The notes beneath the pieces were generated by a model, which ran no database searches, was not told the origin of the DNA, and saw only the letters and a list, made by a program, of their open reading frames with translations. From IMG/VR virus record IMGVR_UViG_3300025383_000009: DNA of 64,000 nucleotides. One strand, given 5' to 3'. The DNA comes from a virus (lineage: Duplodnaviria > Caudoviricetes). Shown in pieces: positions 1 through 20,713 of this stretch. The position numbers were made by a program, and so were the translations under genes. Every line of letters begins with the position of its first letter. The stretch's first letter is position 1.

Positions 1-1
1 A

Positions 2-2552: not shown

Positions 2553-3605
2553 ATGAAAGCACTATTTGATGTGCAAAAATCTTTAGAAATGTGTCCTCCA
2601 AAATATCCAAAAGGAGTTAGCCACATTAAAAGAGTAGTTTTAAAAAGAGGCGTGGATGTTACTTATCCAAAAGATAAAAATCCAAGATTACTTAAAGTGG
2701 TAGTAGAAAGAATTCCAGAATTAAGAGATTCATTTCTTGTTAATGGATTTATTAATACTTGTTCGCCACCTACAGTAAAAGTTGATCCAAATAATAAAAA
2801 TAGATTTATTGGATTATCTGGTTACCATAGAGATGCAGCTGCAGAACAAGCTAAATGGGATACAATGATATATGATGTATTAGAATTTGATTCTCCAAAA
2901 GATGAAAGAATTCATAGAGTAACAACTAATCATCATTTAACGCCAGTTATACCAAATACACTGGATGATATTGTTAAGCAAGTTGTTGAATCTATATCTA
3001 GTAAAGAAATACCTAATGATGATAATGATGTAAAAGAACTTATATCAGTATTAGCAGCAGATAAAACTCCAAATAACCAAAAAACAATTTTTGAGAGAGT
3101 TAGAAGGCAAGTATCTTTTTCTGATACTTTGTTATGTTATCATGCCGGTACAGGTTCAAATTCAACCAAAACATTTGCTGAAAAAAATAATCTCCCATTT
3201 CAAGGAGAAGCAAGATATGGTAAAACAAATAGATTGGGTTATATCACAAGTCAAAAAACTCCAAAAACAACATTATATGAATCTAAAAATTTATATAAAG
3301 ATTATAATGGACAACAAATTGAATATTTTGCTTGGATCTCTAAACCAGAACCTGCTCCTAAATTATACAAACAAAGAAAACAATACAAACAAGCTTTTGA
3401 TAATTTTATCCGACTTGATTGTGAAGCAGAAGTTTTCCGTATGCAAAAACTAGGTTTAAAAGTAAAATTAGAAGATATTATTGCTAGCCATCCAATAAAA
3501 TTTATTGGATTTTTAGCACAAGATATTACACCTGATCCATTCAATAACGGCAAACCAAAAGAAAGTGGTGTTGTTGATATTAATGGAAAAGCGGTAGTAA
3601 TTTAA
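2553..3605 (+). CDS. Hypothetical protein, possible ParB/Srx-like N-terminal domain
   Basis: SD AAGGAG upstream; PPTV...FIGLSGYHRDAAA resembles the ParB GxxR motif. Confidence 0.4.
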   Translation: MKALFDVQKSLEMCPPKYPKGVSHIKRVVLKRGVDVTYPKDKNPRLLKVVVERIPELRDSFLVNGFINTCSPPTVKVDPNNKNRFIGLSGYHRDAAAEQAKWDTMIYDVLEFDSPKDERIHRVTTNHHLTPVIPNTLDDIVKQVVESISSKEIPNDDNDVKELISVLAADKTPNNQKTIFERVRRQVSFSDTLLCYHAGTGSNSTKTFAEKNNLPFQGEARYGKTNRLGYITSQKTPKTTLYESKNLYKDYNGQQIEYFAWISKPEPAPKLYKQRKQYKQAFDNFIRLDCEAEVFRMQKLGLKVKLEDIIASHPIKFIGFLAQDITPDPFNNGKPKESGVVDINGKAVVI

Positions 3606-3622
3606 ATATGCCACAAAATGTA

Positions 3623-3652
3623 TTGACTTATGTCATACATATATGATATGAT
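3623..3652 (+). promoter_or_regulatory. sigma70-type promoter
   Basis: TTGACT-N18-TATGAT with extended TG, upstream of the wHTH gene. Confidence 0.6.
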
Positions 3653-3705
3653 GTTATTTCTCGTTGTGATACGAGGTTTTTTATTAAATTATGAAGGAGT
3701 TATAT

Positions 3706-3972
3706 ATGAAGTTATCAGCAAAAGAAAAAATGTTAGCAGCCTTAAAACAAGAATCTGGCTACAACACATTCACAGTTAAGCAAGCACAACGCCGTTTTGG
3801 TATCAAAAATGTGTCTGCTCGTATTGACGAATTACGTCAAGAAGGTAATGTTATCTACACTAACACAAAGTTAGATGCTAATGGTAACAAAGTAAAATAC
3901 TATCGCTTAGGCACTCCATCTAAAGCACTTGTTCAAGCTGCTTTACGTGCTGGCTATTCTTTCACTGCTTAA
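3706..3972 (+). CDS. Small winged helix-turn-helix DNA-binding protein
   Basis: NVSARIDELRQEG helix followed by beta wing KYYRLG; SD AAGGAG at 3694 places the start at 3706. Confidence 0.6.
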   Translation: MKLSAKEKMLAALKQESGYNTFTVKQAQRRFGIKNVSARIDELRQEGNVIYTNTKLDANGNKVKYYRLGTPSKALVQAALRAGYSFTA

Positions 3973-3991
3973 TCAATAAGCAGATTCAAAG

Positions 3992-4025
3992 AGGAGTTAG
4001 CCGCAATGACTAACTCCTTTTTTTT
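3992..4025 (+). terminator. Rho-independent terminator
   Basis: AGGAGTTAG-loop-CTAACTCCT followed by a T-run. Confidence 0.8.
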
Positions 4026-4042
4026 ATTATTACGGAGAGCAT

Positions 4043-4861
4043 ATGGAAATTTCAATTAAAAAAGAACAGTTACAGACAAAAAGATTATTTGTAGCAACAC
4101 CAATGTATGGTGGCATGAACCATGGTTTATACATGAAGTCATGTTTAGATTTACAAGCTATTTGTATGCAATATGGCATTCAAAGTAAATTCTCATTCCT
4201 ATTCAATGAATCATTAATTACACGAGCAAGAAATTATCTTGTTGATGAGTTTATCCATCGTTCAGATGCTACTCATTTACTATTCATCGACTCTGACATC
4301 AATTTCAATCCACAAGATGTTATTGCTATGTTAGCATTAGATAAAGATGTTATTGGTGGTCCTTATCCTAAAAAGGCAATTAAGTGGCGTTCAGCAGCTA
4401 CAGCACTTAAAAAGAATCCAACTATGAACCCACAAGATTTAGAAAAAGTTGTTGGTGATTTCGTATTCAATCCAGTTAAAGGCACGGCTCAATTTAATGT
4501 ATCAGAACCATTAGATGTATTAGAAATTGGTACAGGTTTCATGATGGTAAAACGAGAAGTGTTTGCTAAAATGGAAAAACAATATCCAGAAATTAGATAT
4601 AAACCAGACCATGTTGGTCAAGCACACTTTGACGGTTCAAGATACATTCACGCTTTCTTTGATACCGTTATCGATACAAAAGATAGTATCACAGGTGGCG
4701 GCTCTGACAGATACCTTTCAGAAGACTATATGTTCTGTCAAATGTGGCGTAAAATGGGTGGACAAATCTACTTATGTCCATGGATGAGAACTGCACACAT
4801 TGGTACCTATCACTTCCACGGTGATATGCCTGCTGTTGCTAATTTTGTTGGAGAAATGTAA
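4043..4861 (+). CDS. GT-A fold glycosyltransferase-like protein
   Basis: FVATPMYGG, ESLITRARN, THLLFIDSDI (DxD), EIGTGFMMV, YLSEDYMFC. Confidence 0.55.
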   Translation: MEISIKKEQLQTKRLFVATPMYGGMNHGLYMKSCLDLQAICMQYGIQSKFSFLFNESLITRARNYLVDEFIHRSDATHLLFIDSDINFNPQDVIAMLALDKDVIGGPYPKKAIKWRSAATALKKNPTMNPQDLEKVVGDFVFNPVKGTAQFNVSEPLDVLEIGTGFMMVKREVFAKMEKQYPEIRYKPDHVGQAHFDGSRYIHAFFDTVIDTKDSITGGGSDRYLSEDYMFCQMWRKMGGQIYLCPWMRTAHIGTYHFHGDMPAVANFVGEM

Positions 4862-4974
4862 TGTCTAATATTGATAAAATTAGAGATTTGTTATCTAAAA
4901 TTGAATACAGACCAATTGAAGCTAACACCTCCAATATCCAACAAATTCAATCATTATACCAAAAACGTAAATGA
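4861..4974 (+). CDS. 37-aa small ORF (MSNIDKIRDLL...), not in ORF track
   Basis: Start shares a base with the upstream TAA; stop is ATGA-coupled to the dNMP kinase start. Confidence 0.5.
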   Translation: MSNIDKIRDLLSKIEYRPIEANTSNIQQIQSLYQKRK

Positions 4975-5639
4975 TTATCGGGTTTGTAGGCTTCATGGGG
5001 TCAGGTAAAGGGACTGCCGGTGAGATTCTAAAAGATATGAACTTTCATCAAGAGAGTTTCGCCAATGGCGTTAAAGATGTCGCCTCCGTCATGTTTGGAT
5101 GGCCTAGGCATCTTTTAGAAGGTGATACTGATGAATCCCGTCAGTTTAGAGAAACACCAGATAAATTTTGGTCTGATAAGATGAGCAGAGATTTTACCCC
5201 TCGTGAAGCACTACAAAAAGTTGGTACTGAAGCAGGTCGTGATACATTCCATAAAGATTTTTGGGTGTTGTCATTAGAGAATAGGATTAAATTTGCTACG
5301 GATTATGTTATTACTGATGTTCGTTTTCCAAATGAAATAGATTGGATACACGAAAAAGGTGGTATTGTAATCGAACTCAAAAGAGGACAAAATCCTATTT
5401 GGTATGAAGATATGGCCAACGATAATGACATGGAATTTAAAATAGAATTAATGAAAAAATTTGGTGTCCATGAATCAGAATGGGCATGGGTAGGAAGTCA
5501 TACCGATGCCACAGTTTGTAACAATGGCACAAAGGCAGAATTACAGGTCAATCTAATCAAAGTATTGACAAGTAAGTTAGGAAGCAGTATAATGAATAAA
5601 CTACTATATCATGGAGAAGAATTATATGAAGTTATCTAA
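4971..5639 (+). CDS. 1: Deoxynucleoside monophosphate kinase (T4 gp1-like)
   Basis: P-loop GFMGSGKGT, FANGVKD, TPREALQKVGTE, ITDVRFPNE. Confidence 0.85.
   Translation: MIIGFVGFMGSGKGTAGEILKDMNFHQESFANGVKDVASVMFGWPRHLLEGDTDESRQFRETPDKFWSDKMSRDFTPREALQKVGTEAGRDTFHKDFWVLSLENRIKFATDYVITDVRFPNEIDWIHEKGGIVIELKRGQNPIWYEDMANDNDMEFKIELMKKFGVHESEWAWVGSHTDATVCNNGTKAELQVNLIKVLTSKLGSSIMNKLLYHGEELYEVI
5565..5593 (+). promoter_or_regulatory. sigma70-type promoter for gp45, inside the 3' end of the kinase gene
   Basis: Perfect TTGACA-N17-TATAAT. Confidence 0.75.
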
Positions 5640-6300
5640 TGAAACATTAAGCGTATTGAAGAATTTCTCTTCAATCAACCAAGGCATTCAGTTTAAGAAA
5701 GGCACTAAACTAACAACAGTTTCAGCAAGTAAGACTGTGTTAGCACAAGCTATTCTTAAAGACGATTTCCCACAAGATTTTTGTATTTACGATTTGAATC
5801 AATTCTTATCAGTCCATTCTTTATTTAAAGATTCAGCTGAACTAGATTTTGACTCAACAAATATCGTATTCAAAAGCGGTAAACGTAAAACAAGTTATCG
5901 TATGACCGCTAAAGAAATGATTGTAACACCACCAGAAAAAGAATTAACTCTTCCATCTGTTGATTGTTCATTCACATTATCATCCGAAGATTTAGATTGG
6001 GCTTTAAAAACAGCATCTGTTTTATCATCACCTCATATCGGAATTAAATCTGACGGAGATAAAATCGAAGTAATTACTTTTGATGCCGCAGACAACTCAG
6101 CACACACAAACGCAATTGAAGTCGGCACAGGTAACGGTAAACAATACAACATTGTATTTAAAACCGAAAATATTAAACTAATACCAGGAAGTTATGATGT
6201 TCAAATTTCTTTCAAAGGTATTGGTCATTTTAAAAACACCAAAGATGATATTCAATATTGGATCGCATTTGAGGCTAAAGAATCTAAATTAGGAGCATAA
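5626..6300 (+). CDS. 45: DNA polymerase sliding clamp
   Basis: MKLSNETLSVLKNFSSIN N-terminus, IYDLNQFLS, QYWIAFE; synteny with 44/62/regA. Confidence 0.92.
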   Translation: MKLSNETLSVLKNFSSINQGIQFKKGTKLTTVSASKTVLAQAILKDDFPQDFCIYDLNQFLSVHSLFKDSAELDFDSTNIVFKSGKRKTSYRMTAKEMIVTPPEKELTLPSVDCSFTLSSEDLDWALKTASVLSSPHIGIKSDGDKIEVITFDAADNSAHTNAIEVGTGNGKQYNIVFKTENIKLIPGSYDVQISFKGIGHFKNTKDDIQYWIAFEAKESKLGA

Positions 6301-6301
6301 T

Positions 6302-6493
6302 ATGTTATTATCATTTACAGAAGCCGATTCAGGCAAACCAATCTCAATTAACCCAGCGCATGTTGTATTAGTATTTACAGCAAAACCTGAAGATAAAGAA
6401 GAACGCACACTTATCAATATGTTGAACGGTAATGTTGCAGTTGCTGAACCATATCTTGATGTTGTTGGCGCTATTCAAGCAGAAATTAAATAA
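6302..6493 (+). CDS. Hypothetical protein
   Basis: Tightly packed ORF between 45 and the DsbA-like gene. Confidence 0.65.
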   Translation: MLLSFTEADSGKPISINPAHVVLVFTAKPEDKEERTLINMLNGNVAVAEPYLDVVGAIQAEIK

Positions 6494-6768
6494 TGGCTAC
6501 AATTCAAACACTATTTGGCACCTTTAATGATGAGCAATTAAAGACACTTAAAGGTGCTGTTGATGAAATGGTTCTTGTCATGCACAAGGCCGACACACTT
6601 AAAGGTGATATGAAAGATATTGTGGATTCTACACATGACCTCTTAAAAGTTCCTAAAAAGATTATTAAGAAAATGGCTAAAGTGCAGTATAAACAATCCT
6701 TTCAAACCGAAGTTGCAGAGTCAAAAGAGTTTGAAGCATTATTTGAAGGCATTTCAGAAGTTAAATAA
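6493..6768 (+). CDS. dsbA: T4 DsbA-like double-stranded DNA-binding protein
   Basis: 91-aa helical pattern (DMKDIVD...LKVPKKIIKKMAK...EFEALFE) resembles T4 DsbA. Confidence 0.55.
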   Translation: MATIQTLFGTFNDEQLKTLKGAVDEMVLVMHKADTLKGDMKDIVDSTHDLLKVPKKIIKKMAKVQYKQSFQTEVAESKEFEALFEGISEVK

Positions 6769-7379
6769 TGCAACCAATTATAATAGACAATTTTATTCCT
6801 GAAGTATATCAGGATTCTATTCTTTATCTATTAACTGGTTCAGAATTTGGCTGGACATTAAATGACGATTCAGCTGGTTACGGTGACGAGCCAGCTGATA
6901 AGTATTTTCATGTAAATATTCCAACTAAAGACCATATCCAGTTTAGACACACTTTCGTCAAAGAGAATGAATTAAAAAGTGATTTTTTAAAATATATTGG
7001 CGTATTAGTTGCTGAATTTGAAAATACAATGAAAGCAAGAGTCAAATATACAAAAAGAATCAAATCTAATTTGTTGGTAAGTAATCAAGTTGGTCCATGG
7101 ATACAACCACCTCATGTTGATGGAATGAATTTAAAAGATGGCGTTGTTGATGCTATTGGTAAATATTCACTATTATATTATGTAAATAATTCAGATGGTG
7201 ATACTACACTATATAATGAATACTTTACTGGAGAGTCTGTTGGTGAATTAACCGTTCAACAAAAGATTTTGCCTGTAAAAGGTCGAGCAGTTATATTTGA
7301 TTCTAATCAGATACATTCTGCTAGTTGTCCTAAAGTTAATGATACTCGTATTGTCATTAATTGTATTTTTGAGATTTAA
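6768..7379 (+). CDS. 2OG-Fe(II) oxygenase
   Basis: PPHVD...YYVNNSDGDT...GRAVIFDSNQIHSASCP...RIVIN (HxD...H...R). Confidence 0.8.
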   Translation: MQPIIIDNFIPEVYQDSILYLLTGSEFGWTLNDDSAGYGDEPADKYFHVNIPTKDHIQFRHTFVKENELKSDFLKYIGVLVAEFENTMKARVKYTKRIKSNLLVSNQVGPWIQPPHVDGMNLKDGVVDAIGKYSLLYYVNNSDGDTTLYNEYFTGESVGELTVQQKILPVKGRAVIFDSNQIHSASCPKVNDTRIVINCIFEI

Positions 7380-7399
7380 TTTTATTATGGGAGTTTTGA

Positions 7400-8329
7400 A
7401 TGCAAGAATTATTATGGGTAGAGAAGTATCGTCCTAAAAAAGTAGAAGATTGTATTTTACCTGATACAATCAAAACTACATTCCAAGAGTTTGTAAATCG
7501 TAAAGAAATACCAAATCTATTACTATCTGGTTCAGCAGGCGTAGGCAAAACTACTATTGCTAAAGCATTGTGTGAAGAAGTTGGTTGTGATTATCTAGTT
7601 ATCAATGGTTCAGATGACAGAGGTATCGCAACGATGCAAACCACAGTCAAGAACTATGCTACTTCAATCAGTCTATCTGGTGGTAGAAAAGTTATCATCC
7701 TAGACGAAGCAGATAATATTACACCAGATGCACAAAAGGCATTAAGAGGCATGATGGAGGCAGTATCTATCAATTGCTCATTCATCTTTACTTGTAATTT
7801 CAAAAACAGAATTATTGATGCTATTCATTCAAGATGTTCAGTTATCGATTTCAAAATCAACGGCTCTAAAGCTAAAATGGCAGCATCTTTCTTTAAGAGA
7901 GTTGAATGGATTCTCGAACAAGAAAATATCACATATGATAAAGAAGTTGTTGCTTCAATTATCACAAAACACTTTCCAGACAATCGTAGAATATTAAATG
8001 AACTTCAAAGATATTCTGTAACAGGCACTATTGATAAAGGCATTCTATCAAACGTATCTGATATTCAAATTGAAGCCCTAGTCAAATCACTTAAAGATAA
8101 AGACTTTTCTGCTTGTCGTAAATGGGTTACAAACAATCTAGACAATGACCCAGCTAAACTGTTCCGTAAGTTATATGATGCATTATTTGAATCACTAAAA
8201 CCAAATGGTATTGCACAGTTGGTAATCATTCTTGCTAGGTATCAATATCAATCTGCTTTTGTTGCTGACCAAGAAATCAATACTATTGCTTGTTTAACAG
8301 AAATTATGGTAGATTGTGAATTTAAATAA
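7400..8329 (+). CDS. 44: Clamp loader large subunit
   Basis: WVEKYRP, GSAGVGKTT, IILDEAD, SRC. Confidence 0.95.
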   Translation: MQELLWVEKYRPKKVEDCILPDTIKTTFQEFVNRKEIPNLLLSGSAGVGKTTIAKALCEEVGCDYLVINGSDDRGIATMQTTVKNYATSISLSGGRKVIILDEADNITPDAQKALRGMMEAVSINCSFIFTCNFKNRIIDAIHSRCSVIDFKINGSKAKMAASFFKRVEWILEQENITYDKEVVASIITKHFPDNRRILNELQRYSVTGTIDKGILSNVSDIQIEALVKSLKDKDFSACRKWVTNNLDNDPAKLFRKLYDALFESLKPNGIAQLVIILARYQYQSAFVADQEINTIACLTEIMVDCEFK

Positions 8330-8718
8330 TGGCAGACTTATTTAAAGAAGTTATTCCGTCAATATTACAGACAAAAAAGTCAGTCTTACATGATGATGTG
8401 GATGTAAAAAAATACGATGCTTTTATTGTCAACCGAGCGTTGTCCTATCACATGGATTGTGTTCTCCACGCTAATGAGATAAATAAGAATCCTAGCTTAG
8501 ATAATGATATGCAATACCAATATTATCTAAATAATATAAGACCTATGAAACGGAAATTTCAACCGTGGCAGAAATCAGAGGTCATAAAAGACATAGATTC
8601 AATCAGGCGATATTTTGGTTACTCCAATGAGAAGGCCAAAGAAGCATTAAGAATTTTGACTGACGAACAAATCGCTGAAATAAAAATAAAAACCGATAAA
8701 GGCGGGATAAACAAATAA
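8329..8718 (+). CDS. 62: Clamp loader small subunit
   Basis: FIVNRALS, YFGYSNEKAKEAL; lies between 44 and regA. Confidence 0.9.
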   Translation: MADLFKEVIPSILQTKKSVLHDDVDVKKYDAFIVNRALSYHMDCVLHANEINKNPSLDNDMQYQYYLNNIRPMKRKFQPWQKSEVIKDIDSIRRYFGYSNEKAKEALRILTDEQIAEIKIKTDKGGINK

Positions 8719-9125
8719 TGATTTCAATTACAAGTTTAGTTGAAGTTACACTAGCAGAAAAAGACGACTTCTTAAAGGTTCGTGAAACCTTAACTCGCAT
8801 TGGTGTTGCTTCAAAGAAAGATAGAACATTGTATCAATCGTGCCATATATTACATAAACAAGGCAGATACTATATTGTTCACTTTAAAGAATTATTTGCA
8901 TTAGACGGTAAACCTACAGATATCACAGAGAATGATTTATCTCGTAGAAATGCTATTGCTAAACTATTACAAGATTGGGAATTAGTAAAAATTGTAGATA
9001 AAAAATCTATTGAAACACCAGAACCAATCTTTTTATCTCAAGTAAAAATCATCTCACATAAAGAAAGAGATGAGTGGAATTTAGTACCAAAATATAACAT
9101 TGGTAAAAAAGCACAAAGCTATTGA
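8718..9125 (+). CDS. regA: Translational repressor RegA
   Basis: DDFLKVRETLTRIGVAS, LYQSCHILHKQGRYYIVHFKELF. Confidence 0.95.
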   Translation: MISITSLVEVTLAEKDDFLKVRETLTRIGVASKKDRTLYQSCHILHKQGRYYIVHFKELFALDGKPTDITENDLSRRNAIAKLLQDWELVKIVDKKSIETPEPIFLSQVKIISHKERDEWNLVPKYNIGKKAQSY

Positions 9126-9152
9126 CATTGTAATTGAGGTGTGATATAAATA
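9122..9152 (+). promoter_or_regulatory. Overlapping sigma70 and T4 late promoter for hsp20
   Basis: TTGACA-N17-TATAAA; late consensus TATAAATA at 9145-9152. Confidence 0.7.
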
Positions 9153-9213
9153 TAAGTGTAAGGTGCCTTCGGGGTCTTACATTTTTTTAACTCGCTTAAT
9201 AGGAGATTTTAAC

Positions 9214-9627
9214 ATGACAGCTTTACAAGGCTATCGGCATTTATTGCCTCAAACAGTAGGATTTGACCATTTATTTTCAACACTTGATGAAATGGTGGAT
9301 TTAAAGACTACTTCATACCCACCCTACAATATCAAAAAAATTGACGAAACAAACTATAGTATAGATGTTGCGATTGCAGGCTTCAATAAAGATGAAGTCG
9401 AAATCCGTGTAGAAGGTGACAAACTTACCGTAATAGGTGAAACTATCAATGAAGACACTTCAACCTACTTACACAAGGGAATTGCTAATAGAAACTTTAC
9501 ACTAAACTTTACATTATCAGATACAGTTGTTGTTGGTGATGCAGAGTTTAATAATGGTATATTATCTATTGGTTTAGAGAACGTAATACCAGATTCTAAA
9601 AAACCAAGAACAATTACTATTAAATAA
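9214..9627 (+). CDS. hsp20: Small heat shock protein Hsp20/IbpA
   Basis: VGFD, YPPYNI, LHKGIANRNF, NGILSI; SD AGGAG. Confidence 0.92.
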   Translation: MTALQGYRHLLPQTVGFDHLFSTLDEMVDLKTTSYPPYNIKKIDETNYSIDVAIAGFNKDEVEIRVEGDKLTVIGETINEDTSTYLHKGIANRNFTLNFTLSDTVVVGDAEFNNGILSIGLENVIPDSKKPRTITIK

Positions 9628-9632
9628 GTTTT

Positions 9633-9706
9633 TACCCTGTAGTGTAACGGTAGCATAAGAGCCTCCAAATCTCTCGGTCGCAGTTCAAATCTGTGCAGGG
9701 TAGCCA
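9633..9706 (+). tRNA. trnW: tRNA-Trp(CCA) with encoded CCA end
   Basis: Acceptor TACCCTG/CAGGGTA, anticodon loop CTCCAAA, T arm CGCAG-TTCAAAT-CTGTG, ends GCCA. Confidence 0.9.
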
Positions 9707-9732
9707 ATTAACTAAAAGAAAGAAGGTAAAAA

Positions 9733-10089
9733 ATGGACTCTTGGGGTTATCACTTAATTTTGGATGTAAGAGGTTGTGATATTGAAAAAGCAACTAATCC
9801 AGATTATATTCGTGATTTTACTAAAGAATTAGTTAAACGAATAGATATGAAACCTTATGGAGAACCCCAAGTGGTTCATTTTGCTGATAATACTGATTTA
9901 GCAGGTTGGACAGTATTACAACTAATTCATACCTCTAATATTACTGCTCATTTCTGTGATATTAATGGTGACTTGTATTTAGATGTGTTTTCATGTAAGG
10001 AATTCGATGGAGATGTCGTGGTTCAGTTCCTAAACGATTCTTTTAAACCATTGAGAATAACCTCTAGATATCTTTACAGAACAGCGTAG
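9733..10089 (+). CDS. speD: Pyruvoyl-dependent SpeD/AdoMetDC-family decarboxylase proenzyme
   Basis: GYHLILD, QLIHT-SNITAHF, LYLDVFSCKEF. Confidence 0.8.
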   Translation: MDSWGYHLILDVRGCDIEKATNPDYIRDFTKELVKRIDMKPYGEPQVVHFADNTDLAGWTVLQLIHTSNITAHFCDINGDLYLDVFSCKEFDGDVVVQFLNDSFKPLRITSRYLYRTA

Positions 10090-10145
10090 ACCTAAATAAT
10101 GCTGTGTGGGATACCTAAAGATTATGCTATTAGTTGGAAATCTAA

Positions 10146-10676
10146 ATGCAAATCAGAATATCCAAATGTCCAGACAGTAAGAATTTCAGACCATATGTTA
10201 AAAGGGCTGTGGAATTCTATGGACAAGAGCTTATTAAAAATAAAAGACTATATAACAACATCTATGTTGATATTAAGTTTGACTCTAAAATAGATGCGTT
10301 TGGATATGCATCCATTGAAGGATACAATACTTTAGGTAAACCTAGAGAGTTTCTTATAGAGGTTCATCCTGGTATTAGTGCTAAAGACATATTGTCTACA
10401 TTAGCACATGAAATGGTTCATGTTCATCAGTATGCTACAGGGCTATTAACTGATGTAGAAAAAGACATAACTAGATGGTGTGGTAAAAAGATTGATCCAG
10501 ATAAACTAGACTATTATAGTCATCCATGGGAAATAGAAGCACATGGAAAAGAAATAGGTTTGCTTGCCAAATTTGTAGTAAAAGAACAGTTATGGAATAT
10601 ATTCGATAAAGTGAATGATCCATCTGCTCCAATCACAGATAAACCATTAGGTTGGAAAAATTTGGTAAACAAATAA
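10146..10676 (+). CDS. Zincin-like (HExxH) metallopeptidase
   Basis: TLAHEMVHVHQY and YSHPWEIEA. Confidence 0.6.
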   Translation: MQIRISKCPDSKNFRPYVKRAVEFYGQELIKNKRLYNNIYVDIKFDSKIDAFGYASIEGYNTLGKPREFLIEVHPGISAKDILSTLAHEMVHVHQYATGLLTDVEKDITRWCGKKIDPDKLDYYSHPWEIEAHGKEIGLLAKFVVKEQLWNIFDKVNDPSAPITDKPLGWKNLVNK

Positions 10677-10683
10677 CTTATGC

Positions 10684-10712
10684 TTGACATTATGTGTGAG
10701 TTATGAGATAAT
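10684..10712 (+). promoter_or_regulatory. sigma70-type promoter
   Basis: TTGACA-N17-GATAAT upstream of the tRNA-like element. Confidence 0.75.
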
Positions 10713-10739
10713 AATAAAACTGAAAGATTAAATGATTAT

Positions 10740-10807
10740 GCGGTGGGTTGTAGAACAAGCATTTCTTCCCGTTATGTTGCTTTGTGCAAGTCAAAGACAC
10801 CGCTCCA
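10740..10807 (+). ncRNA. Degenerate tRNA-like RNA
   Basis: Acceptor GCGGTG/CACCGC + T + CCA; T arm CTTTG-TGCAAGT-CAAAG; mini D arm TTGT-AGA-ACAA; weak anticodon stem. Confidence 0.55.
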
Positions 10808-10813
10808 AATTCG

Positions 10814-11017
10814 ATGGCAGCTAAAAACGATATCACCGGCGATTCAATCTCAACTAAAGTAAATTCAAAAGAATATACTGATAATTGGGATTTGATTTGG
10901 GGTAAAAAGAAAAAAGAAAGTCGTATGGATATTATAGGCCAAAACGGTAATGACGGTTCACATTATGAGGAGATAGAAAATGGCAACAGCAGCGAGAGTC
11001 CATCCGGGCAAACGTAA
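10814..11017 (+). CDS. Small hypothetical protein (MAAKNDITGD...)
   Basis: ATG 6 nt after the tRNA-like CCA; carries the IGQNGNDGxHY motif. Confidence 0.6.
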   Translation: MAAKNDITGDSISTKVNSKEYTDNWDLIWGKKKKESRMDIIGQNGNDGSHYEEIENGNSSESPSGQT

Positions 11018-11222
11018 AGCAGACCCAATGAAACATAAAACGGGCAAACCTAGATTAGGTCCACTAAATCTAAAACAATTAACAGACTTAATAGAAAAAA
11101 CTCAAGTCAAAAAAATCAAAGCAAAATTTCAAAGAGAATTGGAACGAAGAAATATTTTGGCAGTAAAGAAACAAGGTTTTAAAGTAAAGAAAAATCAAGT
11201 ATCAATTAATGAAAATCACTAG
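10980..11222 (+). CDS. Small basic protein (VHPGKR family), paralog of 48195-48383
   Basis: SD GAGGAG upstream; Lys/Arg-rich. Confidence 0.65.
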   Translation: MATAARVHPGKRKADPMKHKTGKPRLGPLNLKQLTDLIEKTQVKKIKAKFQRELERRNILAVKKQGFKVKKNQVSINENH

Positions 11223-11243
11223 TAACATTTAAGTAATAAATCC

Positions 11244-11272
11244 TTTACTTTTCGTTACATTCCTTATATAAT
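11244..11272 (+). promoter_or_regulatory. sigma70-type promoter of pqqA
   Basis: TTTACT-N17-TATAAT. Confidence 0.75.
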
Positions 11273-11277
11273 AATGG

Positions 11278-11299
11278 TGTTAGAGTAGAAATTCTAACA
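11278..11299 (+). promoter_or_regulatory. 5' leader hairpin (or palindromic operator) of the pqqA transcript
   Basis: TGTTAGA-N8-TCTAACA inverted repeat at the predicted +1. Confidence 0.55.
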
Positions 11300-11321
11300 T
11301 AACCTTTAAAGGAGATATACC

Positions 11322-11393
11322 ATGTGGACATCACCAGCTGCAACTGAAATGCGTTTTGGCTTCGAAGTTACTATGTATGTAATGAACAAGTAA
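11322..11393 (+). CDS. pqqA: PQQ precursor peptide PqqA (MWTSPAATEMRFGFEVTMYVMNK), not in ORF track
   Basis: 23 aa with the RxGFEVTMY core (E-x-x-x-Y); strong SD AAAGGAG; dedicated promoter and terminator. Confidence 0.93.
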   Translation: MWTSPAATEMRFGFEVTMYVMNK

Positions 11394-11415
11394 TTAACGA
11401 TTCAGTTTACTAAAT

Positions 11416-11446
11416 AAAACGAGAGCCTAAAAACTCTCGTTTTTTT
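11416..11446 (+). terminator. Rho-independent terminator after pqqA
   Basis: AAAACGAGAG-CCTAAAAA-CTCTCGTTTT plus T-run. Confidence 0.85.
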
Positions 11447-11467
11447 ATTTCCAAAAAGGACATCATC

Positions 11468-11764
11468 ATGAAATACCTTTTGATTGTTTTACTTTTAATA
11501 TTATCAACAGTAGCAATGTCAGAAGAATATTTGGTGATGTATTATAATCCTCATGTTAGGATTGTTTTATCAAAAGATACTTGTTTATTTAAAGAATTAG
11601 ATGGTAAGAGAGCGGCTGCTCAGAGGTCTGACGGACAGGTTCTTCAAGGTTGTTGGAATCCATCAAAAGACGGAAAACAAATCACAATTAAATGGCACAA
11701 TCCAGCAGTGCCTGATGATTCATCAACATTTGAAACAGAAAGATTTATTCCTACAACAGAATAA
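11468..11764 (+). CDS. Secreted/periplasmic small protein, paralog of 53529-53816
   Basis: Signal peptide; EYLV-YN-VRIVLS-C-GKRAAAQR-GCW. Confidence 0.7.
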   Translation: MKYLLIVLLLILSTVAMSEEYLVMYYNPHVRIVLSKDTCLFKELDGKRAAAQRSDGQVLQGCWNPSKDGKQITIKWHNPAVPDDSSTFETERFIPTTE

Positions 11765-13768
11765 TTATTTTGAGGTGGCACGATAAGTGCCGTCCCAATT
11801 TGCAGGTAATCCTTCTTCCATTCTTTCTATCATTTTAGAATAGTATTCTTTTATGGTAACATCATCATTGTTTAACATTTTTCTAGCCCAATCAATTGCT
11901 TTATCCCAATTACCACGATAATATTCTTTTAGATATTCATTGTGCATGTAAGCAATAGTTTTGCCTACTGTATAAATTTTGACACCTTCTGTTTTACCTT
12001 TAACTGCTATGTTGTCTAATTCAACAACGCTATAATTATCTTTAACTAATTCAGCAGTTAATGGACCAAGAATAATCTTAACGCCATAGGGTTTAGATTG
12101 TCCTTCAAGTCTACTTGATAGGTTGACTGCATCTCCGAGGCAAGTGTAATCAAAACGATAGCGGCTACCCATATTACCAACAACAACACTACCAGTATTG
12201 AGCCCAATCCCCATTCCGAACGGCGGTATGCCTTCTTTTTCAATTTCTTTATTAAATTCATCTAAATCTCCTAACATTTCTAAAGCTGTTTTTACGGCAT
12301 TGATGGCATGGTCTTTATCATCAAGAGGTGCATTCCAAAAAGCCATCTGAGCATCACCAATATACTTATCTAGCGTTCCATTATTATCTAAAATCTTTTG
12401 TGTCATAGCAGTCATATATCGGTTCATGATAGAAGTTAAACCTTGAACGTCTTTACCATAGTGTTCTGATATTGTGGTGAATCCACGAACATCAGTAAAC
12501 ATAATAGTTAAATCTTTTGTTTCACCACCGAGTTTTAATAATTCTGGATTCTTTTGTAATTTTTCAACAAGTGCTGGTGATAGGTACGTTCCAAATTGTT
12601 TTTTGATTTGTAATTTTTGATTTAACTCACTTATAAATTTAACAGTATACGCATGAGCATAAACAAGACAAAGAGTAAGAATAGGAAAGATACAGTCCAC
12701 CAAATAATTGTAATGATTAAAGGTATAATGAGAACCATAATATAAAGAAACAATAATAGTAACAATAAAGATAATAGCATATTTCCACCTCGATAATAAA
12801 ATTAATAATATAGACATCATAATTGTGAATAAAAGTTCGGCACCAGTAGCCCAATCAGGTCGTTCTATATTGACATTATTAGCTAAGGTGCCGATTACAG
12901 CAGCCTGCACATCTTGAGGCCATACTGAACCTATACTTGTAGGTAAAGGATTGCCTAATCCTGAAGCAGTTACTCCAACAATAACTATTCCTTTGTTAAA
13001 GTTTTTTGGTAGATTTACTGCTGAAACAGAATTTGATTTTTGTGACCAATCAACCCATATACGACCAAGTGAGTCTGTTGCAATTGGTCTAAAACTTGGT
13101 ATTCGCATCTTCTCAACTCCGTTCTCATTAAGTTTGACTTGAAATGTTGAGTCACCAGACATAACCCTTAACACTTCTAAAGATACACTTGGGTAAATAT
13201 TACCATTATATCCAACGAACAAAGGTATTCTACGATTAACACCGTCTATTTCAGGTAATGTGTTTGTTATTCCAACTCCAGCAGCCGAAGATTCTAATGA
13301 CGGAATGTTAGCAATAATACCTGGATAATTTAAAATAGTATTGATGTTTTCTGAACCAATAATAACAGAACCAGGTTTCTTTGCTGTATTTTTATTTGAT
13401 TGTGAAGGAGAGTTTACTAAAATTACAGGATGGTCTTTGATTGTATCTTCTAATGCTTTGTCACCACCTAATCGGTCGGCTTCAGGCATCATTATATTCC
13501 ATACAACTAAACCGGCATTATGAGCATACAACTGAGCAATTAAATTGGCATATTGGTCACGTTTAAATGGCCATTGACCATAACGGTCTAAAGTGTTTTC
13601 ATCAATATTAACCGTATAGATATTATTAACGGTTTGAGTTTTGCCTGAAATGAGAGTGTCAAAATATCGTAATCGGATTGATTCGATAAAGTTAGAATTG
13701 GAAACAGCAATCACTAACGCTAAGGTTAGTAATGCTGTCCATGGTGATAATAGATATTTCTTAAACAA
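11765..13768 (-). CDS. CHASE2-domain class III adenylate cyclase (membrane-bound)
   Basis: CHASE2 (LRYFD, IDENTLDRYGQWPF, D-DG-RR), 3 TM helices, cyclase motifs FTDVRGFT, DKYIGD, GNMGS-RFDYT-LGDAVNLSSRLE; probable TTG start at 13768. Confidence 0.93.
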   Translation of the reverse strand: MFKKYLLSPWTALLTLALVIAVSNSNFIESIRLRYFDTLISGKTQTVNNIYTVNIDENTLDRYGQWPFKRDQYANLIAQLYAHNAGLVVWNIMMPEADRLGGDKALEDTIKDHPVILVNSPSQSNKNTAKKPGSVIIGSENINTILNYPGIIANIPSLESSAAGVGITNTLPEIDGVNRRIPLFVGYNGNIYPSVSLEVLRVMSGDSTFQVKLNENGVEKMRIPSFRPIATDSLGRIWVDWSQKSNSVSAVNLPKNFNKGIVIVGVTASGLGNPLPTSIGSVWPQDVQAAVIGTLANNVNIERPDWATGAELLFTIMMSILLILLSRWKYAIIFIVTIIVSLYYGSHYTFNHYNYLVDCIFPILTLCLVYAHAYTVKFISELNQKLQIKKQFGTYLSPALVEKLQKNPELLKLGGETKDLTIMFTDVRGFTTISEHYGKDVQGLTSIMNRYMTAMTQKILDNNGTLDKYIGDAQMAFWNAPLDDKDHAINAVKTALEMLGDLDEFNKEIEKEGIPPFGMGIGLNTGSVVVGNMGSRYRFDYTCLGDAVNLSSRLEGQSKPYGVKIILGPLTAELVKDNYSVVELDNIAVKGKTEGVKIYTVGKTIAYMHNEYLKEYYRGNWDKAIDWARKMLNNDDVTIKEYYSKMIERMEEGLPANWDGTYRATSK

Positions 13769-13997
13769 GTGATAATAAAGTTTGTGTTGCTGTAACCAAC
13801 CATCTATAGGCAGTTTCATCATCTGCTAAAGCTTGTTGATTTTTTACATCTACGATTTCTTTAACAAGAAATGAATACTCTTCGTCAGATAAATCACCTG
13901 CTTGATGTTGCTCGGTAATTTTTACCAACTCAGCAGATAATTTACCAAGAACACCTGGATGTCCTGATTTTTCTCTTAATTCTTCTAATATTTTCAT
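13761..13997 (-). CDS. 78-aa helical protein, paralog of 41021-41257
   Basis: ATGA-coupled to the upstream lipoprotein; 36/78 ungapped identity to its paralog by manual count. Confidence 0.75.
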   Translation of the reverse strand: MKILEELREKSGHPGVLGKLSAELVKITEQHQAGDLSDEEYSFLVKEIVDVKNQQALADDETAYRWLVTATQTLLSLV

Positions 13998-14350
13998 CTT
14001 TGTCTCCATGATTCTGAAATAACTTCTACTCTAGATTGTGCAATTGTTAATGCTGATTGGCAAAATAACATACTCTTTGAATCTTTTGCTTTTGTCAGTT
14101 CTTCTTTTAACTTATCAAAGCTTGGTGATTGTGGGTCATTTCTAAGCGCTGAATAAACTTTGATATGTTGTATTTTTGAAGAGAGGTCTGGCCAAGTTGA
14201 TTTATTGGCACAATCTAAATTGTCTACTACGATTTTAATATCTACCAATTGGTCAAACATAACAGGGTCATGTTTAAGTGGCATTATTGATGTAATAGTT
14301 GAACAAGCGGTTAATGTAAGTAATGCAATAAGTGATATAATTTTTTTCAT
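13994..14350 (-). CDS. Lipoprotein, paralog of 41254-41610
   Basis: Lipobox LTAC; conserved Cys pair, RxDPQ. Confidence 0.75.
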   Translation of the reverse strand: MKKIISLIALLTLTACSTITSIMPLKHDPVMFDQLVDIKIVVDNLDCANKSTWPDLSSKIQHIKVYSALRNDPQSPSFDKLKEELTKAKDSKSMLFCQSALTIAQSRVEVISESWRQR

Positions 14351-14357
14351 GATTTAT

Positions 14358-15422
14358 TTAGTTGCTCTGTTGTTTAATAGTTATACTATTGGTTGTTTGG
14401 TCTTGATTTTTCAAATTTACTGTAACACCATTTTGTATGATATTTATATTATATCCTTTGTCTTTATCTATTAATACTGTAGCACTATCTTTAACCGTTC
14501 TTTGTATCATCCAATAAGTATTTTTATCAAAAATATACACTTGATTTAAAGAGTTATAACCTACCACAAAAGTTGCTAATATCATATTATCAAGAGCATT
14601 TGTTAAATAATTTGTGTCTAACGGATTTACATCTAATTCATTAAACCCAGCATAAGGGTCTTTAAAAACTTTTGCATCTAAAGCGTTTTGTTCTAATCCC
14701 GTAAATTCTAAAGCAGAACCTGATTTATTGATTATTTCAGCTTGTATTCTTTCAATGATTTGTTTTGGTGGTTTAACAATAAGCATATTATCAATAGATG
14801 ATTCAGATAATGCTAACAAAACAGGTTTTAATGGTTTAATTTCGGATGATTTTGTTACTGTAGCTTGAAACGCTTGGTTTAAAACTACTTTACCCATGGC
14901 TGTGCTAACTTCAATTGAACCAACTGAACCATCTGGATTTGGTAACAGAATAATAAGAGATTGTCCTATCTCATCTACAGTCATTGTGAATGCTGTACCA
15001 CGAACAGCAACTGAAGCGGTCGGAGTATTGATTGCTACATTTTTATTATTTTCGTGTGCGATATTACCAGATGCATAACGAACAGTTCCCATTGTTACAT
15101 TGAGAGCTAATTTACCTGCACCTTTTTTATTGGGGTCATAGACAAATTCGTCTATAAGAAGTTTTGAATGTTCTGTGACTTTTACTTGAGTTTTATCTTC
15201 AAATGTAATGCCTACTATTCCATTGCCTGTTTGAACAATATCATTACTATCTATATTTGATTTAGGTTTAGCCTCTATTACATCTTTATTTCTAGTAATA
15301 GAGGCTGGACCTTTTTGTTCAGTTATAGAACCAATTACCGCCCAACTAGTGTTGGATGACAGACACAGAAGCACCGCTACCAGTAAGGTTAACGATTGCA
15401 CTATTTGGGTTGGTCGTACCAT
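14358..15422 (-). CDS. FecR-domain periplasmic protein
   Basis: Signal peptide; DIVQTG, ITFEDKTQVKVTEHS, GTVRYASG, TPTASVAVRGTAF. Confidence 0.85.
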   Translation of the reverse strand: MVRPTQIVQSLTLLVAVLLCLSSNTSWAVIGSITEQKGPASITRNKDVIEAKPKSNIDSNDIVQTGNGIVGITFEDKTQVKVTEHSKLLIDEFVYDPNKKGAGKLALNVTMGTVRYASGNIAHENNKNVAINTPTASVAVRGTAFTMTVDEIGQSLIILLPNPDGSVGSIEVSTAMGKVVLNQAFQATVTKSSEIKPLKPVLLALSESSIDNMLIVKPPKQIIERIQAEIINKSGSALEFTGLEQNALDAKVFKDPYAGFNELDVNPLDTNYLTNALDNMILATFVVGYNSLNQVYIFDKNTYWMIQRTVKDSATVLIDKDKGYNINIIQNGVTVNLKNQDQTTNSITIKQQSN

Positions 15423-16053
15423 CTTGAGTCACACTTATATTATTTGAATTACCAATGTTGTTAATACTAATACTATGGCCTGCACCAGCACCAGTACCAT
15501 TTGCACCTGTTTGGCTTGTGGTGATACTGTTATTGTTACCTGCAATTGCTATAGTATCTGTAACATTTTTACTGTTTATGGTACTTGTTATCGAATTACT
15601 ATTTCCTACAGTAGTGATGCTATAGTTATAATTACTCGAATCTCTCATTGTTCCTATATTCAATACAGAATTATTGTTACTACCTGAAAACGATAAATTT
15701 AAATTACCGTTATCAGTACCAAAGTTTCCGTAATTCAATACGATACCGTTACTATTACCATCTTGAGATATTACTCCTGTAGAACCACCACCAACAAAAT
15801 TACCTGTGATAGAGTTGTTCATACCGTTTTGTGTGATACCTAAATTAATACTGTTACCATCAATCACAAATGATGGACTACCAACATTAGTAGGATCTCC
15901 TACCGTGTTGTTAGAACCTGTTTGTGTTATGGTGACTGTAGAATTATCAGCGTTAGTTTGGTCAATATAAACACTATTACCTCCACTATCGACTGCCAAA
16001 GCACTAAATGCTAATAACAAACCCATCACAAAAGTGATAAGCTTACTTTTCAT
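15346..16053 (-). CDS. Secreted curlin-like Asn/Gly/Ser-rich repeat protein
   Basis: Signal peptide; repeats QTGSNNTV, QNGMNNSI, QDGNSNGI, IAGNNNSI, NIGNSNNI; SD AAGGAG. Confidence 0.65.
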   Translation of the reverse strand: MKSKLITFVMGLLLAFSALAVDSGGNSVYIDQTNADNSTVTITQTGSNNTVGDPTNVGSPSFVIDGNSINLGITQNGMNNSITGNFVGGGSTGVISQDGNSNGIVLNYGNFGTDNGNLNLSFSGSNNNSVLNIGTMRDSSNYNYSITTVGNSNSITSTINSKNVTDTIAIAGNNNSITTSQTGANGTGAGAGHSISINNIGNSNNISVTQDGTTNPNSAIVNLTGSGASVSVIQH

Positions 16054-16825
16054 TCTTTTTCTCCTTAAATTGCCACATACCTTTTTTTTCACCTTGAATA
16101 ATCAATTGCTCTACCGCCAGGTCTGTAGCTGCTTTTATGGCGTGTATAGAAGCCTCTGTTTGAGATATTCCTATCTCTTGTTCAAAATTTTGTGTTCCAT
16201 TATCAAAAAACTTAAATATAGCTACACCTGCTGTATAACTCAATATGGTTTTTTGAGCGTTTACTGTTAATAGCACTTCACCTGTTTGTGTGCTAATTGC
16301 TCTTATGCTTACAGTTACAACATCTTCTTGATATTGTGTGTCTGGTCCAATTCCTAACCAACGAACACCAATACCACCTGTTCTTATGTTTGTATCGTAA
16401 CTTATAATACCTCCTTCAATAATCATACCTGCATATAACATAGGTCTGATACCAGAAGGATCTTTTGCTTCATCTCTTGCTGAACGAATTAATTGTCTTT
16501 CTTTTAATAAATTATCAATACCAACTCGTTCTACTATTCTAAACCATTTTCCGTCACCAGCATCTTCTAATGACTTTAACAATACTGTTTCACCACCTTG
16601 TGTTACAGCGGATGATAACTTAGCAATCGTAGCAGAATCTTTTCTTTGACCAGTTTTATCAGCAAAGCTATAAACAGCTACAACTACTTTACCATTAACA
16701 GGTTCAGGTAACGGAGTCTTAGCCCATTTCATTGGCATAAGCTCTGGTTCTTTTTTAATAACATTCATTGGCGGTGTGCAACCAATTACTGCTATACACA
16801 TAAGTGCTATTAATATTTTTTTCAT
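16043..16825 (-). CDS. csgG: Curli secretion channel CsgG-like lipoprotein
   Basis: Lipobox VIGC; VAVYSFADKTGQRK, SSAVTQGG, WFRIVER-LLKERQLIRS, EGGIISYD. Confidence 0.88.
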   Translation of the reverse strand: MKKILIALMCIAVIGCTPPMNVIKKEPELMPMKWAKTPLPEPVNGKVVVAVYSFADKTGQRKDSATIAKLSSAVTQGGETVLLKSLEDAGDGKWFRIVERVGIDNLLKERQLIRSARDEAKDPSGIRPMLYAGMIIEGGIISYDTNIRTGGIGVRWLGIGPDTQYQEDVVTVSIRAISTQTGEVLLTVNAQKTILSYTAGVAIFKFFDNGTQNFEQEIGISQTEASIHAIKAATDLAVEQLIIQGEKKGMWQFKEKKNEK

Positions 16826-16826
16826 A

Positions 16827-17264
16827 TTAGAAACTTAATGTTCCAATAGGAATACTAACTTGCGTCACATTACCATTTTGATCATTAACAGTCATGTTAA
16901 TCATGTCAGCTGTTTTGGTGTATGTAATAGTATTACCTTCAATGGTAACAGTTCCACTATTTTGTGGATTCTCACCAAACAGATTATTAATTAATTGTGT
17001 AGATAATTGAGCATAGACTCTGCTCTCAAAGTTAGTCAAGAACTTGGCTAATATAGTATTATTAGCGGCATTTGCTGCATCAATGGCTGCCTGTTTCTGT
17101 GCCGCTTCTATTGCTTGCTTGCGTGTGTATTCTGTGTTCTCGATAGTCTGTACATGAGAACTATATCCTATCCCAGAGAAGGAAGGAGATTTAAACTGAA
17201 ATACTTGTTCCGCATAAGCGTTACTGCTTATCAGTACTACTGCTAGGATCCTGGCGAGCTTCAT
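16827..17264 (-). CDS. csgF: Curli assembly protein CsgF-like
   Basis: Signal peptide; FKSPSFSG, FESRVYAQLSTQL, SGTVTIEGNTI; adjacent to csgG. Confidence 0.7.
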   Translation of the reverse strand: MKLARILAVVLISSNAYAEQVFQFKSPSFSGIGYSSHVQTIENTEYTRKQAIEAAQKQAAIDAANAANNTILAKFLTNFESRVYAQLSTQLINNLFGENPQNSGTVTIEGNTITYTKTADMINMTVNDQNGNVTQVSIPIGTLSF

Positions 17265-19733: not shown

Positions 19734-20713
19734 TATTGGGCTCCTCCCCATACATCTTCCCATGAACCTTTAAGTGCACCCTTCGCATAGTCGGTTACAC
19801 GGTTCTCAAAGAAGTTACCATGAACTGGAGCATTGATCATCTCCTCAACCCATGGTAGCGGGTTCTTTTTAACTTTAAAAATACCTTTTAATCCGAGTGA
19901 GATCAAACGCCTATCAGCGATGTAACGGATGTATTGTTTAACATCTACTGGCTCTAACTCTCTCATGTGTGTACCTGAGAATGATAAATCAATAAACTTA
20001 TCTTCGAGTTGAACCATCTTCTCAGCTATAGTATATATGCGACCCTTCAAGTCATCATTCCATATCTCGTTGTTCTCTTTGATAAATGTTTTAAATAGCT
20101 TAATCATGTTCTCAGCGTGCATAGTTTCATCAACGATTGACCATGTAACGATCTGACCCATACCTTTCATCAAACCATGACGAGGAAAATTAAGCAGCAT
20201 GATAAAAGAACTAAAAAGCTGCATACCCTCCGTGAAAGCAGAGAATACTGCGATGTGCGTTGCAGTTGAAGATAAGTCACCGTTTTTCGAACTGAGTTCC
20301 GTAACATAGTCGTGTTTGTCCTTCATTTCTTGGTATTCAAGGAATTCATTATATGTAGATTCTGGCATACCTAACGTCTCAATCAAGTGAGAGTATGCTG
20401 CGATATGTAATGCTTCGCGAGCCGCAAAGCCCATAAGCATCATTCGAACTTCTGGTTGAGGGAAGTATGGTAGGTAGTTCTTAACATAACCGCCGGCAAC
20501 GTCGATGTCACCTTGCGTAAAGAACCTAAATATATTAGTAAGGAACTGCTTCTCTTCCTTTGTTAACTTCTTCTTCCAGTCCTTAACATCTTCTGCCATA
20601 GGAACTTCTGTATGTAACCAATGTGCCTGTTCATGTTTCAACCATGCGTCATATGCCCATGGATAATTGAATGGCTTAAAGTATTCTCTCGTATCGGTTA
20701 ATTTGTCTGCCAT
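19733..20713 (-). CDS. nrdB: Ribonucleotide reductase class I beta subunit
   Basis: Diiron ligands in REALH and DETMH, EGMQLFSSF, NFFENRVTDY. Confidence 0.96.
   Translation of the reverse strand: MADKLTDTREYFKPFNYPWAYDAWLKHEQAHWLHTEVPMAEDVKDWKKKLTKEEKQFLTNIFRFFTQGDIDVAGGYVKNYLPYFPQPEVRMMLMGFAAREALHIAAYSHLIETLGMPESTYNEFLEYQEMKDKHDYVTELSSKNGDLSSTATHIAVFSAFTEGMQLFSSFIMLLNFPRHGLMKGMGQIVTWSIVDETMHAENMIKLFKTFIKENNEIWNDDLKGRIYTIAEKMVQLEDKFIDLSFSGTHMRELEPVDVKQYIRYIADRRLISLGLKGIFKVKKNPLPWVEEMINAPVHGNFFENRVTDYAKGALKGSWEDVWGGAQ

Follow-up and report, generated by a model that had tools for sequence, protein, structure and literature searches.

A stand-alone pqqA gene in an uncultured T4-like freshwater phage and its counterparts in methylophages

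In the synthesis of the cofactor PQQ, PqqD binds the leader of the precursor peptide PqqA, the radical-SAM enzyme PqqE links a glutamate of the peptide to a tyrosine, and peptidases, PqqB and PqqC complete the molecule, one PqqA being consumed per PQQ. The cyanophage gene psbA, which encodes the D1 protein and for which expression and benefit have both been demonstrated, may offer a parallel to a phage-borne pqqA, in that the phage would in each case carry only the fast-turnover, consumable part of an energy system of its host, the other parts of which are stable. The two cases involve unrelated proteins and pathways, and the expression and benefit demonstrated for psbA are presumed for phage pqqA.

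PqqA has previously been reported in T4-like phages of Lake Baikal with predicted Methylophilaceae hosts (VP_266/VP_139; Coutinho et al., 2020, Microbiome 8:163, PMC7678222). These phages also encode peptide deformylase, ribonucleotide reductase, cytidylyltransferase and methanol dehydrogenase. The function considered below for PqqA is the one that the authors put forward; the paper further states that phage P19250A has none of these genes. A 2026 paper (PMC13188868) lists viral pqqA among phosphate-solubilisation genes, and the Melnitz paper does not mention the pqqA of that phage. The preliminary description of the DNA analysed here had implied that a phage pqqA was new, which cannot be upheld given the publication of viral PqqA in freshwater T4-like Methylophilaceae phages in 2020; with the concept in print since then, the value of the present locus is confirmatory.

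The phage genome around pqqA

The window, by which we mean the whole 64-kb stretch of DNA that was analysed, resembles the Baikal phages in its freshwater source, T4-like character, GC content of about 35% and predicted Methylophilaceae host, and PqqA is accompanied in both by peptide deformylase, ribonucleotide reductase and a cytidylyltransferase-like protein. It differs in that the Baikal phages encode methanol dehydrogenase, whereas none is present in the 64-kb window. The window thus represents the same kind of phage, a likening that refers to gene content and not to sequence identity with VP_266.

The phage context given in the preliminary description was borne out by T4-type gp44, gp62 and RegA genes upstream of pqqA and by PHROG families downstream of it (Table 1), followed farther downstream by ribonucleotide reductase, UvsX, gp41 helicase, DNA ligase and gp43 DNA polymerase. 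The gp43 polymerase has no more than 54% identity to that of any cultured phage, its best matches being cyanomyophages. A megablast search with positions 8700-14400 against the phage collection gave no match, which points to a phage without a close cultured relative. Judged from its genes, the window is from an uncultured T4-like phage. No integrase was found among the window ORFs scanned, and GC content (0.32-0.40) shows no step at the pqqA cassette, which has the same GC as its flanks.

Table 1. Features of the window, in order of position.
Feature	Position	Strand	Details
Peptide deformylase	640-1209		
DruA-family protein (Druantia defence), 421 aa	1209-2474	+	PF14236, 75 bits, E 7.6e-21
gp45-type sliding clamp	5611-6300	+	5' of pqqA
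gp44, T4-type clamp loader	7400-8329	+	phrog_168, E 1e-124
gp62-position ORF	8329-8718	+	
Translational repressor RegA	8718-9125	+	PF01818, 160.6 bits
Hsp20	9163-9627	+	5' of pqqA
tRNA-Trp	9633-9706	+	5' of pqqA
SAM decarboxylase	9733-10089	+	PF02675
Candidate promoter, sigma-70-like -35/-10	11244-11272	+	TTTACT 11244-11249, 17-nt spacer, TATAAT 11267-11272; 10/12 matches
5' leader hairpin	11279-11298	+	8-bp stem, 4-nt loop, at predicted transcript start; MFE and centroid structures concur
Shine-Dalgarno AAAGGAG	11308-11314	+	7 nt 5' of ATG
pqqA CDS, 23 codons + TAA	11322-11393	+	encodes MWTSPAATEMRFGFEVTMYVMNK; cross-link pair Glu15/Tyr19
Intrinsic terminator	11416-11446	+	10-bp stem (11416-11443), 8-nt loop, T-run
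CHASE2 + adenylate/guanylate cyclase membrane protein, 685 aa	11765-13822	-	phrog_35576 full-length, E 3.5e-249
FecR-like protein	14358-15422	-	phrog_37870 full-length, E 4e-76
Curli module, Curlin-repeat protein, 248 aa	15346-16092	-	PF07012, 27.8 bits
Curli module, CsgG	16043-16825	-	
Curli module, CsgF	16827-17264	-	
Heme oxygenase	20713-21255		
Saccharopine-dehydrogenase-family protein	22167-23606	-	PF03435 and PF16653

The genes for the CHASE2/cyclase and FecR-like proteins are convergent with pqqA, and both are kept in the nearest related IMG/VR record (here G001). Synteny with this record stops precisely where the cyclase gene ends, at window position 11765, and nothing to the left of that position is held in common: positions 1-7230 of G001 and 1-11764 of the window had no similarity, tblastx included. 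The pqqA side of the junction is therefore a variable region, and G001 provides no counterpart against which the cassette could be compared. Because pqqA is also absent from the 40.7 kb of the G001 fragment, the gene can be regarded as accessory.

Several neighbouring genes were recorded in passing. The DruA-family match sits in a lytic T4-like phage. The CHASE2/cyclase protein, with 68% amino acid identity to its homolog in G001, may be a phage second-messenger sensor, and the SAM decarboxylase and saccharopine-dehydrogenase-family protein could take part in polyamine synthesis. CsgF, CsgG, the Curlin-repeat protein and the FecR-like protein make up a curli-type module on the minus strand (14358-17264). 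The curli modules of Melnitz and pelagimyophages are reportedly without the fibre subunits CsgA/B (PMC9004378), and a Curlin-repeat gene beside csgG is noteworthy for that reason. Directly 3' of the pqqA terminator lies a 98-aa ORF (11468-11764, plus strand) with a hydrophobic N-terminus resembling a signal peptide; it had no Pfam or PHROG match.

The pqqA cassette and its linkage to the phage genome

The short reading frame was identified as PqqA by both curated models, in agreement with the preliminary description. It scored 37.9 bits against PF08042 (cut-off 21.1; E 1.7e-9), with the whole 19-position model covered, and 34.4 bits against the NCBIfam equivalog TIGR02107 (cut-off 20), so that by profile comparison the match is clearly above chance. 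Membership of PqqA was taken to mean a Glu-X3-Tyr pair in a peptide of about 20-40 residues, and the 23-residue window peptide keeps the cross-link pair as E15-V-T-M-Y19. Glu15 and Tyr19 were invariant in every phage and host PqqA copy aligned.

Promoter hexamers, leader hairpin, Shine-Dalgarno sequence, 23-codon frame and terminator were each found where the preliminary description had placed them. Folding of the predicted transcript (11279-11446) gave a 5' hairpin and the terminator, and was more stable than that of shuffled sequences (z = -3.4; 1 of 200 shuffles was equally good). The promoter is the weakest element of the cassette. The window contains two occurrences of the pattern TTTAC-N17-19-TATAAT where 0.37 would be expected, but generic sigma-70-like sites in the AT-rich region between 9 and 14 kb are at chance frequency (23 found, 23.4 in shuffles), and the hexamer match is statistically undistinctive.

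The claim that no other pqq gene is in the window was upheld by tblastn of the 64 kb with PqqB, PqqC, PqqD and PqqE queries from two Methylophilaceae genomes, which returned nothing; a host XoxF query likewise gave nothing significant (best E 0.81). PqqB-E and XoxF were also absent, by tblastn, from the flanks of 80 viral pqqA loci fetched from IMG/VR. PqqC, PqqE and methanol dehydrogenase were absent from the complete genomes of Melnitz, Venkman, P19250A and MEP402 and from complete IMG/VR genomes, with a PqqC model that did detect its gene in host genomes as a positive control. Across the window, the flanks of the 80 viral loci and the complete methylophage genomes, the phages carry pqqA alone of the PQQ pathway.

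Linkage of the cassette to its phage flanks, which the preliminary description had named as a check, was examined with metagenomes. The stretch 10200-12700 is present in many freshwater metagenome runs, and contigs of four runs (X5, X10, X12 and X15) were aligned to positions 8700-14400. An 11.6-kb contig of run X5 covers the whole stretch with zero differences, although X5 is possibly the source sample and so not independent. Run X12, from another study (2023), yielded a 335-nt contig over 11208-11542 with one difference, which reaches from the end of the upstream ORF through the entire cassette into the beginning of the downstream one and is overlapped by neighbouring contigs on both sides. 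In run X10, a 160-nt contig (11258-11417) overlaps one of 1142 nt (11388-12529). Run X15 contains a strain that is about 93% identical and has pqqA at the same site; one side of its locus is covered from 10890 to the first codons of pqqA, and the other from the second half of the gene as far as 12256. The cassette is thus joined to both flanks by contigs of independent freshwater metagenomes, and host contamination or a chimeric join was rejected on these grounds.

Some features of the same data would be expected if a host pqqA fragment had been mis-joined into a phage contig during assembly. The k-mers of pqqA are common to many genomes of these metagenomes, summed contig depth over 11183-11564 is 30-148x compared with about 6-12x in the flanks (2-25 times, in four metagenomes), and several assemblies break at the cassette. 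The excess depth points to many genomes in the same samples with near-identical pqqA sequence, and since such copies behave like a repeat during assembly, contigs built from short reads are prone to end at this point. Against a mis-join stand the spanning X12 contig from a separate study, the X5 contig with the reservation already made, the X10 and X15 contigs that connect the ends of pqqA to each flank, the equal GC of cassette and flanks, and the occurrence of the same gene in cultured, plaque-purified methylophages. The chance of such an artefact is practically negligible, and both the identity of the frame as a pqqA gene and its linkage to the phage are near-certain.

pqqA in other phages and in Methylophilaceae genomes

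A comparison with phage contigs by tBLASTn had also been proposed at the outset. The gene is present in cultured methylophages, and at least 587 IMG/VR contigs have PqqA of the window's type. Searched by tblastn with the window peptide, 50,697 phage records yielded Melnitz (four isolates), Venkman, P19250A, MEP301, MEP401, MEP402 and the uncultured podovirus ctXG6705 from a freshwater spring. The frame is intact and preceded by a Shine-Dalgarno sequence in Melnitz, Venkman, P19250A, MEP301, MEP401/402 and ctXG6705, and the PqqA of the cultured methylophages is 74-96% identical to the window peptide. The remaining matches were two records named "Acinetobacter phage" and one Escherichia phage match. 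The latter (E = 10) is noise, and the one Acinetobacter record examined, MD-2021a contig 10 (CAKLQF020000010), carries ppk and pqqABCDE and is bacterial, not phage, DNA.

The carriers span at least four unrelated groups, one represented by a Kyanoviridae myophage, one by siphophages, one by Zobellviridae podophages and one by a further podovirus. Like the window, the cultured methylophages (Melnitz, Venkman, P19250A, MEP301 and MEP401/402) have an orphan, intact pqqA; they differ from it in phage lineage and insertion site, the gene being antisense to all of its neighbours in Venkman; the flanks in Melnitz have no homology to the window. In the records of P19250A, Venkman, MEP301 and MEP401/402 pqqA is unannotated, and in two others its place is taken by a hypothetical ORF annotated on the other strand, as seen for ctXG6705 and for Melnitz (MZ577097, positions 4961-5069 of the extracted locus). 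An intact pqqA is present in P19250A (KX815270, positions 3001-3072 of the extracted locus), and the published statement on this phage (PMC7678222) needs correcting. Every cultured methylophage returned by the search thus carries pqqA, as do hundreds of uncultured ones, almost always unannotated. PHROGs contain no pqqA family.

Among the 80 IMG/VR loci that were fetched, 44-56 had flanking genes of cultured methylophages, compared with 2-4 of 80 host loci, and these common genes indicate that the fetched contigs are viral. One pqqA each was found in two IMG/VR genomes of 63.2 kb and 37.3 kb that are complete and have terminal repeats. At the DNA level, the fetched loci all resemble the window only over about 11308-11396, which comprises the Shine-Dalgarno sequence and the CDS, with similarity occasionally extending through the terminator.

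Host copies were sought in species-representative genomes, where a scan with the aligned phage peptides gave at least 570 loci. The best 80 of these were nearly all from Methylophilaceae (Methylotenera, Methylophilus and MAGs) and had 22/23 identity, and the near-identity to Methylophilaceae PqqA given in the preliminary description was confirmed at 22 of 23 residues in many Methylotenera, Methylophilus and other Methylophilaceae genomes. The 19-position PF08042 model was insensitive in genome scans (controls were silent too), and the core EMRFGFEVTMY was therefore sought with a degenerate DNA pattern, which matched 359 of 361 Methylophilaceae genomes, with about 1,500 matches in total. Host genomes contain 3-12 copies of pqqA, mostly orphan. 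In streamlined hosts (1.2-1.4 Mb) there are typically three, of which two form a tandem pair with a spacing of about 200 bp and the third lies far away, and larger genomes have up to 11-12; in Methylotenera mobilis 13, with 11 copies, one adjoins pqqBCDE and ten are orphans. In a 1.33-Mb host genome (GC 0.35-0.37) none of the three copies is linked to pqqBCDE, which lies elsewhere and encodes PqqB (304 aa), PqqC (245 aa), PqqD (105 aa) and PqqE (394 aa). Candidate hosts therefore possess the pqqBCDE that the window lacks, and their pqqA copies are likewise unlinked to it.

The window gene resembles the chromosomal orphan copies of Methylophilaceae in peptide length and residues, in its separation from pqqBCDE, and in its layout of leader hairpin, Shine-Dalgarno sequence, CDS and terminator. 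Of 88 host cassettes, 85 have a Shine-Dalgarno sequence at -16 to -4, and an SD-like motif was found in 80 of 85 viral ones. Leader structure with z < -1.5 was seen in 56% of the viral cassettes and 35% of those from hosts (17-19% of control segments), and terminator-like downstream structure at the same threshold in 77% and 93%, respectively (15-17% of controls). The differences are that the window copy sits in a phage genome and that its exact Ser4-Ala6 peptide was not among the 361 host genomes (TCN codons searched). This type of PqqA retrieved almost only Methylophilaceae, and the window is of freshwater metagenome origin; the earlier suggestion of a methylotrophic host is reasonable, with Methylophilaceae as the predicted family.

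In 65 unique viral CDS, pS was 0.47 and pN 0.023 (pN/pS 0.049), and in 76 unique host CDS pN/pS was 0.029, values for which the sets were picked by peptide similarity so that pN is biased downward. Cultured phages were not picked in this way, yet all have an intact frame with W2, T3, P5, A7 and the E9-Y19 block invariant, as these are over seven phage PqqA copies. Synonymous divergence in the viral set is near saturation while the peptide is kept. These substitution patterns indicate that pqqA is under purifying selection in phages.

The best DNA match between the window pqqA and a host copy, among those compared, has 6 mismatches in 69 nt. The exact window peptide (Ser4, Ala6) was encoded by 14 of the 80 best IMG/VR loci and by 0 of the 80 best host loci, and the Ser4 allele (codon 4, 11331-11333) by 21 of those 80 IMG/VR loci. 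Among the 361 Methylophilaceae genomes, 8 had Ser4 and none the exact peptide, the search covering TCN serine codons. Ser4-type alleles may circulate mainly among phages, a hint that comes from a biased sampling of the best matches listed. A prophage origin of the eight host Ser4 copies was considered and rejected, no phage homology being found within 1.5 kb of them.

Possible function of phage pqqA

We consider it probable that the cassette is a functional, stand-alone, host-derived pqqA unit of a lytic T4-like freshwater Methylophilaceae phage that supplies the PqqBCDE of its host. In the proposed sequence of events, a short mRNA would be made from the sigma-70-type promoter, capped by the 5' hairpin and ended at the intrinsic terminator, and would be translated into the 23-residue peptide. 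Host PqqD and PqqE would cross-link Glu15 to Tyr19, and host peptidases, PqqB and PqqC would finish PQQ. With one peptide destroyed per PQQ and the enzymes catalytic, PqqA alone would depend on continued transcription; takeover of transcription by the phage would cut off the precursor first, and a pqqA under an early-type promoter would prevent the shortage. The phage gene would thereby add to or replace host pqqA expression during infection, and the periplasmic PQQ-dependent methanol dehydrogenase would stay loaded, providing energy for phage production.

The peptide is practically a host PqqA and should for that reason enter the host pathway, and we infer binding by PqqD, cross-linking by PqqE and conversion to PQQ from this near-identity. 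That the gene is transcribed, when this happens, that host enzymes process the peptide and that the phage gains in fitness are likewise put forward as inferred steps. The host dosage of 3-12 pqqA copies is consistent with a dosage-limited supply, and in a methylotroph the expression of pqqA copies tracks the rate of PQQ synthesis (PMC9851590). Metatranscriptome runs contained only 12-16% of the words sampled from the cassette, a share that other copies of pqqA could account for and that cannot be assigned to this phage, and a study of Methylophilaceae transcriptomes (PMC3728764) makes no mention of pqq. The need for new PQQ synthesis within one infection is an assumption, PQQ being a recycled cofactor. 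PQQ is also present at 1 nM in published media for OM43, where it could hide an effect of the phage gene.

Capture of a host unit by illegitimate recombination could also have left pqqA as a neutral or nearly neutral passenger with no role in infection. The dispersed host copies would provide many chances of capture, the related 40.7-kb fragment lacks the gene, and the insertion site varies between phage lineages. A passenger would, however, hardly be expected to be intact in every cultured methylophage found, in at least four lineages, or to have a pN/pS of about 0.05 with synonymous change near saturation and with Shine-Dalgarno sequence and terminator kept. Complete small genomes (37-63 kb) retain pqqA, moreover, and so does the roughly 93% identical strain, at the same site; we regard a passenger as unlikely.

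It is conceivable, too, that the peptide is made but is no substrate, acting instead as a decoy that would occupy PqqD/PqqE and thereby stop the making of PQQ, or as a signalling or regulatory peptide. Phage-specific alleles, hinted at by Ser4 in 21 of 80 viral loci against 8 of 361 host genomes, would fit such a role, but a decoy would be expected to lose Glu15, Tyr19 and the E9-Y19 core, which are invariant and the same as in host PqqA, and variation is confined to N-terminal positions 4 and 6, which are variable among host paralogues too. This makes a non-substrate peptide quite unlikely. A role at the level of DNA, with the 72 bp serving not as a gene but as a patch of homology at which the phage could recombine with host pqqA copies (integration or transduction), would draw on the multiple host copies and on the recombinases that some small methylophages encode within a few kb of pqqA. 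It is very improbable for the window, a T4-like lytic phage with no integrase among the ORFs scanned, in view of selection on protein and not on DNA (pS 0.47 against pN 0.02) and of the 6 mismatches that separate even the best host match. No rival accounts together for the invariant catalytic residues, the protein-level selection and the recurrence in lytic phages.

A function in supplying the host pathway with PqqA would add a RiPP precursor to the metabolic genes known from viruses. Gene callers miss pqqA, which is unannotated or overlain by a wrong-strand call in nearly all cultured methylophage records. Somewhat short of an even chance, in our estimation, is the broader reading that pqqA is a near-universal, lineage-independent hallmark of Methylophilaceae phages, comparable to psbA in cyanophages and kept as phage-circulating alleles such as Ser4. 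If this reading is true, PQQ and methanol oxidation in infected cells are limited by how much precursor peptide is supplied and not by the capacity of the enzymes, and the 72-nt gene could mark the hosts of uncultured methylophages. Methylophilaceae (OM43, LD28/Methylopumilus and Methylotenera) are main methanol consumers of lakes and coastal seas, with an energy metabolism that relies on PQQ-dependent methanol dehydrogenase, and a phage gene that feeds the sole consumable step of PQQ synthesis would reveal which step is limiting in these bacteria during infection.
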